Of a stretch of 64,000 bases of DNA, positions 1,551 to 49,838 are shown in pieces. The notes under the pieces are model-generated. The model was given only the letters and a program-made list of their open reading frames with translations. It made no database searches and had not been told where the DNA came from. A program made the translations under genes and the position numbers. The first letter of the stretch is position 1. Each line of letters opens with the position of its first letter. Origin of the DNA: a virus; IMG/VR virus record IMGVR_UViG_3300037153_000324, positions 1 through 64,000 of that record; one strand, 5' to 3'.

Positions 1551-1798
1551 AAATGTCCGAGACATTGACGCTCGACCAGTGCGAACAGGTCTACATGGAC
1601 GGTTGCGCCGATGAAATATCCGGCGATGTGGAAGCGCCTATGGGACACTTCTACCGTGTCGGTCGCTTCATCGTCACGACCGACTCGCAGGGATTTCACA
1701 GCCTGAGCGAGTATGCCGATGAGGAGACTGCCCACTACGAATTCGAGCAGGCCGCAGTCGCGTACGCCGAGTGGGATAGCTGGAATGACGACGCTTGA
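1547..1798 (+). CDS. acidic hypothetical protein
   Basis: AAGGAAGG RBS, ATGA overlap with the previous gene. Confidence 0.7.
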   Translation: MKMSETLTLDQCEQVYMDGCADEISGDVEAPMGHFYRVGRFIVTTDSQGFHSLSEYADEETAHYEFEQAAVAYAEWDSWNDDA

Positions 1799-1814
1799 CA
1801 GCGTGCGCTATGAT
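1793..1814 (+). promoter_or_regulatory. putative promoter GCTTGACA-N8-TATGAT
   Basis: TTGACA 1795-1800, TATGAT 1809-1814. Confidence 0.6.
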
Positions 1815-1820
1815 GGGTGC

Positions 1821-1884
1821 GTTCCTTCTCTGTCGGAGGGATGAGCACAAGAGGGGCCGGGATTCTTCCCGGCCCTTTCTTTTT
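1821..1884 (+). ncRNA. candidate antisense sRNA (~65 nt), 5' seed UUCCUUCUCUGUCGGA
   Basis: bounded by a promoter and an intrinsic terminator, no ORF, 5' end complementary to the repeated TCCGACAGAGA leader box. Confidence 0.5.
1854..1884 (+). terminator. intrinsic terminator
   Basis: GGGCCGGGA-TTCT-TCCCGGCCC followed by TTTCTTTTT. Confidence 0.85.
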
Positions 1885-1973
1885 GCGCTCGCGCCGAAAT
1901 TCCACACCGGGGCCGAGTAGCTCGCGCCAGATCGCGCCAACCACGCCGCGCCGACCGCGCCGACGCCTGCTCT

Positions 1974-44512: not shown

Positions 44513-44749
44513 ATGTACATAATCGCAGCAGTCGGTGACGGATGGCTCGCGGTTGCTGCTGTTATAACGGCAATCGGGGGGATAATTTCAAGTATTGCTG
44601 CCGCAAAAAGAGCTAAGAAAGAAGGGATCGAAGAATCGAATGCAAAATGCCATGAGCGATTGGTCAAGATGCAAGAAGAATCCGAGAGATTGGCTGCTGA
44701 ATTACATCGCATGAAGATGATACATTACGACGAAACCGAGTACGAATGA
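44513..44749 (+). CDS. holin-like membrane protein (TM plus coiled coil)
   Basis: WLAVAAVITAIGGIISSIAA then a charged tail. Confidence 0.55.
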   Translation: MYIIAAVGDGWLAVAAVITAIGGIISSIAAAKRAKKEGIEESNAKCHERLVKMQEESERLAAELHRMKMIHYDETEYE

Positions 44750-45387
44750 AAATATTGCTCTTTTTCTCGGCAGTTTGTTGGATTGCGACGGCAGGACTGG
44801 TCGCTGCAATGAGCCTGAGCGCGGCCCCAGTCGAGACGGTTACGACCACGATTCAAGGCCCGCCAGGAGCCACAGGAGCCACAGGGACGGCCGGAAAGCC
44901 CGGAAAGGCTGGTCAGAAGGGGTCAACCGGAAACGCTGGCTCAGAAGGCCCACAGGGGCCGCAGGGAGTCCAAGGCCCACAGGGCATTCAAGGGCCAATA
45001 GGGCCGACAGGCTCACAGGGAGTTTCAGGTAGCCGTGGAGCACAAGGCTTACAGGGCCTAGCGGGGAAAGCTGGCTCATCTGGCCCACAGGGTGCTCAAG
45101 GTGCTCAGGGAATTTCAGGGCCGAAAGGTGATAAAGGCGACACCGGAGCAACCGGCCCGCAAGGCCCGAAGGGCGACACTGGTTCACAGGGATCGACAGG
45201 CCCACAAGGAGCACAAGGGCCAGTAGGAGCAACTGGGTCAACTGGTGCGACCGGCGCAGCAGGGCCACCGGGAATTCAAGGGCCACCTGGCCCGGTATGT
45301 CCTACGGGTTTTACGCTTCAGACAATTTCAGTACACGAACGCGATCCTGAAGGCACTGCCATAATTTCCGTCTGCGTCCAAGGGTGA
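44746..45387 (+). CDS. signal/TM-anchored collagen-like protein
   Basis: ~48 Gly-X-Y triplets, N-terminal hydrophobic segment, C-terminal CP.GF...VC. Confidence 0.85.
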
Positions 45388-47361: not shown

Positions 47362-47510
47362 GAAAGGAAATTTGATAAGCTTGAGCGGGGTAGAGTTGAG
47401 TTGCCCGCCCTTCTCGCTCTGCCCCGCTCAGGGCCGATCCTACCTCAGAGGCGTTCCATGCCGGTTCGTGGCGTCCTGAGCCGTCCTGTGCGGCCTCAGA
47501 GGGGGGTGGT

Positions 47511-47540
47511 TTGACAAACTCACAGTGGACGACTTAGATT
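47511..47540 (+). promoter_or_regulatory. canonical sigma70-type promoter
   Basis: TTGACA-N18-TAGATT. Confidence 0.6.
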
Positions 47541-47629
47541 CCCTCCGGGGCCGGACGACCATGTGATACCGGAATCCGGCCCTTATCCCTTTCCTGGCCC
47601 GAAATTTCACCGAGAGGAATGAAGAAATT

Positions 47630-47941
47630 GTGGCTCACGATGCTCCGCACGGACGACAGAAGTCATCGAAATTAGTCAAGAAGCCGCATGTAACCGAGCA
47701 GACGAAATTTGACCTTTGGTTGTCCCAATGCATGAATGACGGGACGCCTGTAATTGTCACTTTTTCGCTCGATCTACAACCGATTTTGGGCGTTAGGACA
47801 ACTCCTTGTTGGGTGCTCGTTGTTGACCGCTATTTTGTCCAATTGGAGCTTATCGATCTGTTCGAAAAATTCGGTGCCGGTGGTAATATCTTCTGGTTTC
47901 CGAAAGACGTTCTCAGGGCGGTTTCTCTTGCAATTTCATAG
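47630..47941 (+). CDS. putative Hfq/Sm-like RNA-binding protein
   Basis: FDLWLSQCMNDGTPVIVTF / VVDRYFVQL / FWFPKDVLRAV resemble the Hfq helix-Sm1-Sm2 pattern by eye. Confidence 0.45.
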   Translation: MAHDAPHGRQKSSKLVKKPHVTEQTKFDLWLSQCMNDGTPVIVTFSLDLQPILGVRTTPCWVLVVDRYFVQLELIDLFEKFGAGGNIFWFPKDVLRAVSLAIS

Positions 47942-47974
47942 TGTTTATTGGTTGCAAGAGCTATGCGCAAAATA

Positions 47975-48480
47975 GCTTCTCTCGCGCGTGCGCGTACGTG
48001 CGCGATCCTTATAGACTCCTACGGAGTCTATGAATGTACTCTTACTGTTCACTGCTCCGCAGTGAACAAACAAAAACAGAAACAGACAAAAGTAAAAAGT
48101 AAAAAAATGAAAAAGTAAAAAATAAAAGGAAATAGAAAGGCTGAAATTTTTGTTCCGTTTGTCACAAACCCTCACAAACTCCCGGAGGAGCCATTGGCTG
48201 AAAAAACCAAAAAATCGCAGCCTTCTGCGGAAAAACCAATTTCAATCACTTTCGAAAACAAATTTCACAAGGAGCTTGAAAAAACCCTTCGCCAGTGGTT
48301 CGAAAAAAACGGGCAATTTTCAAAAAACGGCCTGCAAATAGAGTACGACTTTCGCGGACGGAAAAATTCCGTTTCGCTTCGCGTAATTGGACGACCCGGA
48401 CAAATTCTCGTTCGCAAATGGAAACAAGGAACCTAATTCGCTGTTTTCAAATTTGGCAACTAGACAGAGCAGGGAACAAA
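47975..48480. other. candidate replication origin (palindromes plus A-tracts before the helicase)
   Basis: ATAGACTCC-TAC-GGAGTCTAT hairpin, alternating CG run, A-tract array 48065-48140. Confidence 0.45.
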
Positions 48481-48500
48481 GCGATAAGCAAGGAGATGCC

Positions 48501-49838
48501 GTGAGCGTCGAGAGCTACGTTATTTCAGCGTTGGTCGAGGAGGGATCGCCCAAAAAGGCTTTTTCCGAAGGCGTGAACGAAAGCGACTTCGAAATCTACG
48601 ATGAGGAATTTCGTTGGATCGTAGATCGAGCCGAGAAGCGTAAGCCAGTCACCCCTCGAACATTCAAGGATGCGTTTCCGGATTTTGATTTCATCATCCC
48701 GAGGGAGACGCTTCCGGATCTGCTGGACGAATTGAAACAGGAACGAGCCTTTGTCTCGATTTCAAGTGCCATCGAGGAAGTCATTGTTGACCTGACCGCT
48801 GAGAATTCGCTTCGGAAGGCCGAGGAGCTACGTGAAATTCTCGGGGACGTTCTCCGTACGCATGCCGCGCATAGCGACGTGCTCATCAAAGCCGGTTGGC
48901 GCGATCATCTGAAACGAGTTAGGGATCTTCAGATACTTCGGGAGAATGGTGAAATTGCTGGAATCCCAACTGGCATCCTTCATTTCGATCAATACTGGGG
49001 CGGGCTGCAAGGGGAAGCCAGCTACCTGATTCTCGGACGGCCGGGTGATGCTAAGAGCTTTACCCTGGCGAAATTCACGACAGAGGCAGCCTGGCAGGGA
49101 TACCGTGTCGGTTTCTTTTCGCCCGAGATGACAGAGCATCAGCATCAGTGTAGGTTCCACACGCTTCTCTCTGCCAAATCTGAAATTCAGCAGGAGTGCA
49201 ATCTCAAGGGTGCATTTCCCAACCGAGCGCTCAAGGATGGGTTCGGCTTCAACCTCAAGACGTACAAGCGCTTCCTGGAATATCTCGACAATTCGATGAA
49301 AGGTGAAATTTGTCTGTTTACGCGCAAATATCGGCGTGAGCGAATGACGACGAGCTACATCGAGTCGCGGGTGGAAGAGCTAGGGCTGGATCTTGTAATT
49401 GTCGATCCGCTCTATAAGCTGAAAGCGCCACGGCACAGGGGTACGAAGTGGGAGGAGCTTTCCGAGCTTACGGACAATCTCACGAATATTGCGCATGCAT
49501 TCAACATTCCGGTCATAATGTCCAATCAGGCGACGAGAGCGCTCGTCGGATCGAGGGGCGACCCGCCTGGTCGAGACACAAGCTTCGGATCGGATGCACC
49601 TGTGCAGGAGGCAGACGTTGTATTTGGCGTTCGCCATCACTCTGACGAGCGGATAATGAAAGTTGCCTGCTCAAAGAATCGGCATGGTGAGCCATTCAAG
49701 TTCACCATGAAATTCTTGCCCAACAAAGGTGTGATGGAAGATGTGACTCCTTTGTATGGCGAGTACAAGAACGGGTACGATCCTGAGATAGCTGAAGAGC
49801 TACGTGTAGCTATGCGAGAGGAAAATGAAAATGACTGA
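48501..49838 (+). CDS. dnaB: DnaB-like replicative helicase
   Basis: GIPTG, GRPGDAKS Walker A, FSPEM, VIVD, SNQ, QEAD, KNRHG. Confidence 0.9.
   Translation: MSVESYVISALVEEGSPKKAFSEGVNESDFEIYDEEFRWIVDRAEKRKPVTPRTFKDAFPDFDFIIPRETLPDLLDELKQERAFVSISSAIEEVIVDLTAENSLRKAEELREILGDVLRTHAAHSDVLIKAGWRDHLKRVRDLQILRENGEIAGIPTGILHFDQYWGGLQGEASYLILGRPGDAKSFTLAKFTTEAAWQGYRVGFFSPEMTEHQHQCRFHTLLSAKSEIQQECNLKGAFPNRALKDGFGFNLKTYKRFLEYLDNSMKGEICLFTRKYRRERMTTSYIESRVEELGLDLVIVDPLYKLKAPRHRGTKWEELSELTDNLTNIAHAFNIPVIMSNQATRALVGSRGDPPGRDTSFGSDAPVQEADVVFGVRHHSDERIMKVACSKNRHGEPFKFTMKFLPNKGVMEDVTPLYGEYKNGYDPEIAEELRVAMREENEND

Follow-up and report, generated by a model that had tools for sequence, protein, structure and literature searches.

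Introduction

In the bacterial protein Hfq, the uridine pocket on the proximal side is built from an aromatic residue at position 42, an amine at position 41, K56, Q8 and H57, the last of which favours RNA over DNA, as described in a review (PMC10628458). Mycobacteria are reported to be without hfq (PMC7017587). In bacteria that have neither Hfq nor ProQ, the way in which base-pairing RNAs locate their targets is still an open question, and RNA chaperones encoded by phages are almost unstudied; a search of open-access papers and preprints found no work on the function of an Hfq-like protein from a phage. The gp39 protein of Adephagia has been flagged as a protein with an Hfq-like fold in an actinophage (PMC11373665). 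Here we describe a gene from a 64,000-nucleotide (nt) stretch of viral DNA, hereafter the window, which represents bases 1-64000 of the IMG/VR record IMGVR_UViG_3300037153_000324 (74,373 bp, with direct terminal repeats and rated complete). The gene encodes a protein of 103 amino acids (aa), which an earlier reading of the sequence alone (the original prediction) had called an Hfq/Sm-like protein under its own promoter and part of a system of small RNA (sRNA), ribosome-binding-site (RBS) 'box' and chaperone. We find a new protein family for which an Sm fold is supported and a chaperone role is plausible, and the original prediction is overall partly supported.

The 103-aa protein founds a new phage protein family

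The open reading frame (ORF) that had been claimed behind a TTGACA-N18-TAGATT promoter is indeed present (Table 1). It starts with a GTG that is the earliest start codon within an open frame of 124 codons and that is preceded, 10 nt further 5', by the Shine-Dalgarno-like sequence GAGAGGAA; a comparison of the upstream regions identifies this sequence as a degenerate copy of the CCGACAGAGAGGAG box of relatives. In the source database, and also in the ESM Atlas, the gene is called only as a 69-aa form that starts at M35 (window position 47732). Because an invariant T-K-F-D-x-W-L helix precedes M35 and is lost in the 69-aa call, we prefer the 103-aa model; judged from the sequence, the shorter call is wrong and the database entry needs to be corrected to 103 aa.

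An exhaustive phmmer search of 1.84 billion representatives recovered the 69-aa self form and four distant proteins (E 1.1e-5 to 7.5e-4; 34-40% identity), and a profile built from these matches collected 44 proteins at E ≤ 0.01 among 1,002 candidates. Each of the 44 is either unnamed or annotated as 'hypothetical' and is without a precomputed Pfam domain. Their sequences were deposited at JGI, Logan, ENA and in one NCBI assembly, and they stem from soil metagenomes and phage contigs, several of which are 69-76 kb in size. No match to the window protein was present in Pfam, PHROGs, NCBIfam or PADLOC, and NCBIfam gave none for four other members either (5 family proteins in total). Neither blastn nor tblastn searches of 50,697 phage records yielded a meaningful match to the gene, and two scans of IMG/VR uncovered just one further contig with a family member. 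A search of 185,579 prokaryote species, each represented by a single genome, found no relative, so that the family is so far known from phages only. No fused forms of 257-2000 aa were detected, which is weak evidence. Collectively, we regard it as close to certain that this is a real gene and that it founds a new, as yet unnamed phage family, which merits a name and a Pfam entry of its own.

For alignment A2 we used 41 members and excluded P0002, the truncated self form, as well as the three weakest proteins (P0043-P0045). Among these 41 sequences, which share 18-37% identity, ten columns are invariant (K26, F27, D28, W30, L31, D66, R67, Y68, W89 and K92), and T25, V65 and I95 are close to invariant. 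The N-terminal tail is basic across the family (median net charge +4, range 0 to +13), and residues 1-24 of the window protein probably form a disordered basic tail.

The predicted structure is closest to that of Hfq

When modelled by AlphaFold from its single sequence, the protein reached a predicted local distance difference test (pLDDT) value of 57, too poor for a structure search. With A2 as input, the pLDDT was 84.1 and the predicted template modelling score (pTM) was 0.67, all five models falling between 82 and 84. The resulting model satisfies the Sm/LSm topology of an N-terminal helix followed by five bent antiparallel strands (Table 1), with two short helical loop insertions at about residues 46-56 and 75-86. 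In a Foldseek search of the PDB with this model, 31 of the 32 matches listed were Hfq (best match 3hsb_E, E 5.5e-3, template modelling (TM) score 0.78 by target), and the first non-Hfq protein, an Lsm, appeared at rank 40. A VIA search of all PDB entries placed Hfq at ranks 1-7, and in a second VIA search, headed by 5uk7_F, a structure of Hfq bound to double-stranded DNA (dsDNA), Hfq took 49 of the best 50 entries. Below Hfq in VIA stood the WYL domain of PafBC (8.7), two designed SH3 barrels (8.3), the WYL domains of BrxR, CapW and DriD (7.4-8.1), an Lsm (7.8) and RimP (7.3), and it is Lsm, SmAP and Sm chains that, beside Hfq, fill the structure match lists. MazF/PemK was absent from the best 50 entries of the VIA searches.

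Taken from the model, an Sm fold is thus very probable. The original prediction had staked its case on such a fold, and this is what the A2-based model gave, with Hfq dominating the matches of both search methods. The description of the fold as closest to Hfq is supported by the ranking of the matches and by their full coverage, with residues 25..103 of the model corresponding to residues 6..67 of E. coli Hfq; the margin by which the model separates Hfq from WYL domains is thin. To address assembly, four copies of residues 21-103 were predicted together with A2; the three runs scored 0.36, 0.71 and 0.29 (median 0.36), set against a mark of 0.42 and controls at 0.00.

Two results from the ESM Atlas were set aside. 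Structure models computed from the 69-aa form, which lacks the invariant N-terminal helix, are poor (pLDDT 0.53), and with such a model the Atlas returned Agenet, PemK/MazF, WYL and RimP barrels (TM 0.57-0.64). A feature match returned an unnamed cluster (0.91) and C39-peptidase-like clusters (0.88-0.90) that share few features with the protein, at chance level.

The original prediction had aligned three segments of the protein with Hfq by eye, and the same register was reproduced by hhalign. We compared A2 with E. coli Hfq (probability 7.7%, E 0.0045, 56 aligned columns), with an alignment of 59 gamma/beta-proteobacterial Hfq sequences (5.6%, E 0.0068, 59 columns) and with S. aureus-type Hfq (21.9%, E 0.00098, 55 columns). 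All three comparisons yielded one common register over the full domain, in which FDLWL...TPVIV falls on QDPFL...VPVSI, VDRYFV on FDQFVI of the E. coli or YDKYVV of the S. aureus protein, and PKDVL on YKHAI. This sub-threshold register agrees with the residue ranges aligned in the structure matches, while five unrelated small phage proteins that served as a control were aligned to the family over ≤13 columns. A wider Hfq profile brought no gain in the hhalign score; it drew on 80 fetched loci, every one of them gamma/beta-proteobacterial (number of effective sequences, Neff, 2.1). By BLASTP, the similarity to Hfq is non-significant (E = 15).

In the hhalign register, D66-R67-Y68 corresponds to D40-K41-Y42 of S. 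aureus Hfq and K92 to K56/57. R67, Y68 and K92, each invariant in 41 of 41 members, consequently fit positions 41, 42 and 56 of the uridine pocket, as far as a register from a sub-threshold alignment can place them.

A conserved promoter and leader precede the gene

The promoter assigned to the gene by the original prediction holds up. Although a promoter scan on its own is at chance level (1 site in 3 kb versus 2.3 expected in shuffles), the claim is good because the motif TTGACn-N16-19-TAnnnT is conserved upstream in six of six relatives (L002, L004, L005, L006, L007 and L094) that offer at least 120 nt of upstream sequence; L003 was left out since it has too little. The promoter of the window is visibly homologous to that of L094.

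Directly downstream of the promoter, the relatives carry an exact and invariant 12-mer, CCTTTCTGTCGG(A), the anti-box, which occurs once each in L002-L007, the loci that carry the gene, and in L094 (contig G001), which does not. Where the start of the first gene is defined, in five loci (L002, L004, L006, L007 and L094), the 12-mer precedes it by 86-105 nt; the 12-mer is absent from L008, which has only a 21-residue partial match. In the relatives, the 12-mer is followed by a GC-rich hairpin in which compensatory changes keep 5 of 10 predicted pairs, and their leaders fold far above shuffled sequences (z -3.4 to -4.7). The leader of the window is a degenerate version of these leaders without an exact anti-box (alignment A4); its predicted fold has a minimum free energy of -28.8 kcal/mol (z -1.44) that was equalled or bettered by 14 of 200 shuffles and is hence non-significant. 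This linkage to the leader places the Sm-like gene physically within the box/anti-box RNA system of the phage, as would be expected of a dedicated RNA helper.

A free-standing sRNA candidate in the window, composed of a seed, a hairpin and a T-run, aligns with the leader of the relatives (alignments A4 and A5) and carries a copy of the 12-mer with two mismatches at positions 1825-1836. Window positions 1790-1900 align over their full length (TTGAC, seed, GC hairpin, CCGAAAT) with the leader that precedes the early/replication operon in the relatives (L002:3720-3943, L004:1280-1502, L006:800-955 and L007:740-913). To judge from its sequence, the locus resembles a copy of the leader that was displaced or duplicated and gained a T-run terminator, and from this we infer a connection of the sRNA candidate to the Sm-like gene. 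DNA similarity to the sRNA stretch was not found in G001 or G002, a search for which the query is too short to be informative. A first-guess version of the 'box' motif was discarded, as its 3 matches versus 1.69 expected are non-significant.

The gene heads a replication module

In all five loci with sufficient flanking sequence (the window, L002, L004, L006 and L007), the gene stands after the lysis cassette, at the head of a DnaB-type helicase module. The helicase matches DnaB_C in each of them (E 1e-16 to 5e-21), and a DnaG/Toprim primase comes next in the four loci tested (4/4). In L004, L006 and L007 the gene is positioned directly upstream of DnaB with a gap of 160-200 nt. The lysis cassette contains an Rpf-like transglycosylase (PF06737) in the window and in L004, the same family below the cut-off in L006 and L007, and a CHAP protein further upstream in L002. 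The closest IMG/VR relative by DnaB (62% identical) is G001 (70,178 bp, rated complete); a search of G001 for the family found no member at E ≤ 1.

A tentative role in RNA pairing and its rivals

The best mechanistic reading of these data, which we put forward tentatively and at somewhat less than even confidence, is that of a ring-forming RNA binder acting on the leaders of the phage itself. The gene product would be a small early phage protein in which a floppy basic N-terminal tail precedes a single helix and a bent barrel of five strands. Among Sm folds it would be closest to Hfq, and it would assemble into a ring as Hfq does. D66-R67-Y68 in the turn between strands 2 and 3, K92 in the turn between strands 4 and 5, and K26-F27-D28 at the start of the helix might then line one face round the pore, and this face, aided by the basic tail, could bind single-stranded RNA. 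The likely substrates would be the structured leaders of the phage, the gene being the first cistron behind the conserved promoter and leader. The CCUUUCUGUCGG element of the leader is proposed to pair with the 'boxes' at ribosome-binding sites, and the protein may speed, stabilise or open such pairings and thereby set the translation of itself and of the early and replication genes. What the data show are the gene, its family, the predicted fold, the fixed position, the promoter and the link to the leader; a ring, binding of RNA and an effect on box/anti-box pairing are inferred from them, and the chaperone role as such is plausible.

A more elaborate version of this proposal, which we consider doubtful, is a self-contained riboregulation cassette. 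One promoter would serve a leader or sRNA whose CCUUUCUGUCGG seed masks boxed ribosome-binding sites, and the first protein encoded would be an Hfq-like ring that catalyses or reverses the pairings, so that RNA and chaperone are brought together into an Hfq-less, probably actinobacterial host; in the phage studied here the RNA would have split off as a terminator-ended gene of its own. An actinobacterial host is probable from sequence comparisons. Among cultured phages, it is chiefly actinophages that carry relatives of the DnaB protein (Streptomyces 127, Mycobacterium 92 and Gordonia 41 of 358 records), the best named match of the DnaE-type polymerase is Gordonia phage GMA6 (30% identity), and the endolysin region contains a gene with an Rpf-like domain. 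Moreover, -10 boxes of the TAnnnT type are typical of actinobacteria. The terminase indicates no particular host. With a host that is only probably actinobacterial, the idea of a phage that supplies Hfq to an Hfq-less host is tentative.

Several observations weigh against an Hfq-like RNA chaperone. With regard to the protein, the folded core is acidic across the family (median net charge -4, lowest -14), the Foldseek search gave no match at E ≤ 0.001, and the three hhalign comparisons are below significance (6-22%). The Hfq, Hfq-related and LSM models of Pfam matched neither the window protein nor the 41 members at E ≤ 1, the Hfq model PF17209, which matches in control genomes, had no hit across the entire phage record at E ≤ 10, and the family profile found nothing among PDB sequences at E ≤ 10. 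The equivalent of Q8 is F in 41 of 41 members, and that of H57 is S in 17, D in 12, G in 8 and another residue in 4. Y55 is replaced by S, N, P, A or Q, so that the Sm2 Y-K-H triad is not kept. The eight-residue rim segment aligned to the arginine patch of Hfq is without R or K in the window protein, while at least two are present in 30 of the 41 members, typically as E-R-M-R-x-D-R. With regard to the RNA, the predicted partner of the anti-box in the relatives is the RBS of the gene itself, a pairing in cis for which a chaperone is not needed; the good anti-box copy of the window lies 46 kb away from the gene; and when ORF starts were ranked for pairing with the seed of the sRNA candidate, the RBS of this gene came 59th of 315, in a crude ranking whose ORF list holds many spurious frames and whose seed included GC-rich flanks. 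Finally, G001 keeps the promoter and the anti-box, but an unrelated 83-aa ORF (L094:1986-2237) fills the slot of the gene; hhalign found this ORF unrelated to the family, and an ESM Atlas look-up of it returned nothing.

The pocket is accordingly compatible and invariant at three of five positions, since R67, Y68 and K92 fit while the equivalents of Q8 and H57 differ. Because the profile searches found no Hfq and two defining residue features of Hfq are missing, we do not file the protein in the Hfq family, although it may work in an Hfq-like manner. Of the label 'Hfq/Sm-like protein', the Sm fold and the Hfq-ranked structure matches are retained, whereas membership in terms of Hfq or LSM profiles and of Q8, H57 and the rim is not. 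Similarly, the proposal of a joint sRNA, box and chaperone system finds its anti-box in the leader of the gene in six relatives, and it is weakened by the predicted cis pairing with the RBS and by the leader that G001 keeps without the gene.

The same data can be read in terms of DNA. An Sm-fold ring or oligomer on single-stranded or origin DNA might help to load or position the adjacent DnaB as a replication accessory, the likeness to Hfq then being one of fold only. The position of the gene as the first of a DnaB/DnaG-type primase module in 5/5 loci fits such a function equally well and in this respect also counts against the RNA-based proposal. H57, the residue that biases Hfq towards RNA (PMC10628458), has no equivalent here, and the top VIA row, 5uk7_F, is the dsDNA-bound Hfq. 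The gap to the helicase holds GC-alternating motifs and, in the window, an A-rich tract that is a possible unwinding element; this tract is not kept in the relatives, and the core of the protein is acidic. G001 possesses the same DnaB module but no family member, and hhalign found no relation between the family and the proteins whose genes lie upstream of DnaB in the Gordonia phages DalanDe and GMA6, the nearest ones in culture. We know of no replication initiator or loader with an Sm fold. On balance, a replication accessory is possible but unlikely; if it were true that the protein serves replication, the Sm fold would have a role that, to our knowledge, has not been described for it.

A small barrel of the Sm, WYL or SH3 type might also act as an adaptor that binds a ligand or protein, for instance as an early host-takeover or anti-defence factor, with a pocket for a partner other than nucleic acid. 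Its place as an early gene behind a host-type promoter and its acidic core are in keeping with this idea, and so is the unrelated small ORF that replaces it in the closest relative, a replacement often seen with accessory early genes. A Borrelia gene once called an Hfq homologue was reportedly later reassigned to flagellar assembly, which sets a precedent for wrong Hfq-like labels. However, PADLOC, the WYL model of Pfam and other families gave no match; the invariant residues coincide with positions of the nucleotide pocket of Hfq, and the basic tail kept in the family is typical of nucleic-acid binders. As a rule, WYL domains occur in fusion with DNA-binding domains; longer fused forms were not found, a weak argument. 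We judge an adaptor function to be unlikely.

Lastly, a diverged but true Hfq orthologue, captured from a host as a general sRNA chaperone, would explain the Foldseek and VIA results and the consistent register with its conserved D-[KR]-Y and K, yet it is very hard to reconcile with a Pfam Hfq model that performs in control genomes and is silent here, with the loss of the Sm2 Y-K-H motif and of Q8, with the absence of prokaryote relatives and therefore of any visible host donor, and with the rarity of canonical Hfq in phages, which tblastn detects in just 7 of 50,697 records, several of them resembling bacterial contigs.

For the RNA-based role that we prefer, the family offers a concrete and clonable candidate, with ten invariant residues and a candidate natural RNA partner 90-100 nt upstream, and the close relative with the same leader and a different first gene provides a natural comparison.

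Further features of the locus

Table 1. Positions of the gene and of the sequence elements around it (window coordinates unless residues are stated).
Feature	Position	Strand	Description
Free-standing sRNA candidate	1817..1884	+	Seed, hairpin and T-run; aligns with the leader of relatives
Hairpin I4	47382..47430 (arms 47382-47395, 47417-47430)	+	Between lysis cassette and promoter; 14-nt inverted repeat, 93% complementary
Promoter	47511..47540	+	TTGACA (47511-47516), N18, TAGATT (47535-47540); 10/12 consensus matches; -10 of TAnnnT type
5' leader	47541..47629	+	GC hairpin (about 47548-47582), then CCCUUUCC, able to pair with the RBS GAGAGG
Shine-Dalgarno-like GAGAGGAA	47612-47619	+	10 nt 5' of GTG
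Coding sequence, predicted Sm/Hfq-like protein	47630..47941	+	103 aa; GTG start
Predicted Sm/Hfq-like domain	residues 25-103		A2-based model; helix 26-37; strands 41-45, 57-65, 69-74, 87-91, 95-100
Spacer before next ORF and DnaB	47942..48193	+	Hairpins 48010-48032 and 48046-48068; GC-alternating 47983-48005; A-rich ~48069-48140

Hairpin I4 probably marks the end of the late transcript. Its loop contains the 10-mer CCCGCCCTTC, of which the 64-kb window has a single copy, as does each of L004, L006, L007 and L094, and the arms around it differ between the phages yet remain complementary. Since the loop is conserved while the stem covaries, the data suggest a recognised RNA or DNA site and hence more than a plain terminator. 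The CCCGCCCTTC hairpins of the relatives are located at L004 ~1180-1240, L006 ~720-790, L007 ~665-725 and L094 ~1665-1730.

In the spacer downstream of the gene, both hairpins are perfect and precede a purine-only A-rich tract of ~70 nt with up to 75% A in 60 nt. This tract may serve as an unwinding element or belong to an A-rich leader; the A content of the corresponding spacer is 28-42% in four relatives, so that the tract is not conserved. The GC-alternating GCGCGTGCGCG-type motif recurs in the spacer between gene and helicase in three loci, including L002 and L004. An 80-aa ORF with a strong GGAGGA site (48194-48436) overlaps the DnaB ORF, which as called starts with TTG (48387-49838); the helicase probably starts later than position 48387. 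Small ORFs are likewise present in L002 (96 aa) and L094 (73 aa), the window and L094 versions being without similarity to each other. Just before the lysis genes, positions 44746-45387 encode a protein of 213 aa, whose N-terminus is signal-like and which contains a long G-x-y repeat resembling collagen. The GC content of the window is 48-58%, and no tRNAs or Rfam families were detected in it. Six soil DNA runs, from which the record may derive, also contain the stretch, and there was no RNA run among those listed.

Comparison with known systems

Among proteins of known structure, the closest counterpart of the phage protein is Hfq (PF17209, TIGR02383; S. aureus 1kq1/1kq2, B. subtilis 3hsb and E. 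coli 1hk9). The two are alike in the register that sets D66-R67-Y68 on D40-K41-Y42 and K92 on K56/57, and in joining a disordered tail to the core. They differ in that the tail of the phage protein is N-terminal and basic while that of Hfq is C-terminal, and the phage protein has F for Q8, S, D or G for H57, an acidic core and two loop insertions, with rim arginines missing from the window member. The phage family is also without significant sequence similarity to Hfq and is so far encoded by phages only; a ring and RNA binding like those of Hfq are proposed for it.

Phage proteins with a comparable fold have been annotated before. In the BFVD, the neighbours of our model (E 0.056-0.096) include an 'Hfq-like domain-containing protein' of the Mycobacterium phages Phabba and Tonenili and an 'RNA binding protein' of the Arthrobacter phages Maureen and DrManhattan, a likeness given by the structure match and the entry names. 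Adephagia gp39 was considered as a relative and rejected, as no sequence relation is detectable (hhalign probability 0.46%); gp39 is encoded near the integrase, whereas the family gene heads a replication module. In the accessible parts of the sources, neither gp39 nor any of the four BFVD proteins is reported beside a conserved RNA leader.

The WYL domains of PafBC (6sj9), BrxR (7qfz), CapW (7tb6) and DriD (8tp8) are parts of helix-turn-helix (HTH)/WCX regulators of 190-640 residues, while the phage protein stands alone; it is not matched by the WYL model of Pfam (PF13280), and the WYL entries rank below every Hfq entry.

With respect to its possible working, the system may be set beside FinO with the FinP antisense RNA of F plasmids and Rom/Rop with RNA I/II of ColE1, which are RNA-pairing helpers of mobile elements. 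FinO and Rom/Rop have entirely different folds, and binding by the phage protein is proposed by analogy; the comparison is one of possible working and does not extend to membership. What they would share with the phage system is the logic by which a mobile element supplies a regulatory RNA together with a small protein that helps it to pair, and in this way controls its own replication or transfer genes.

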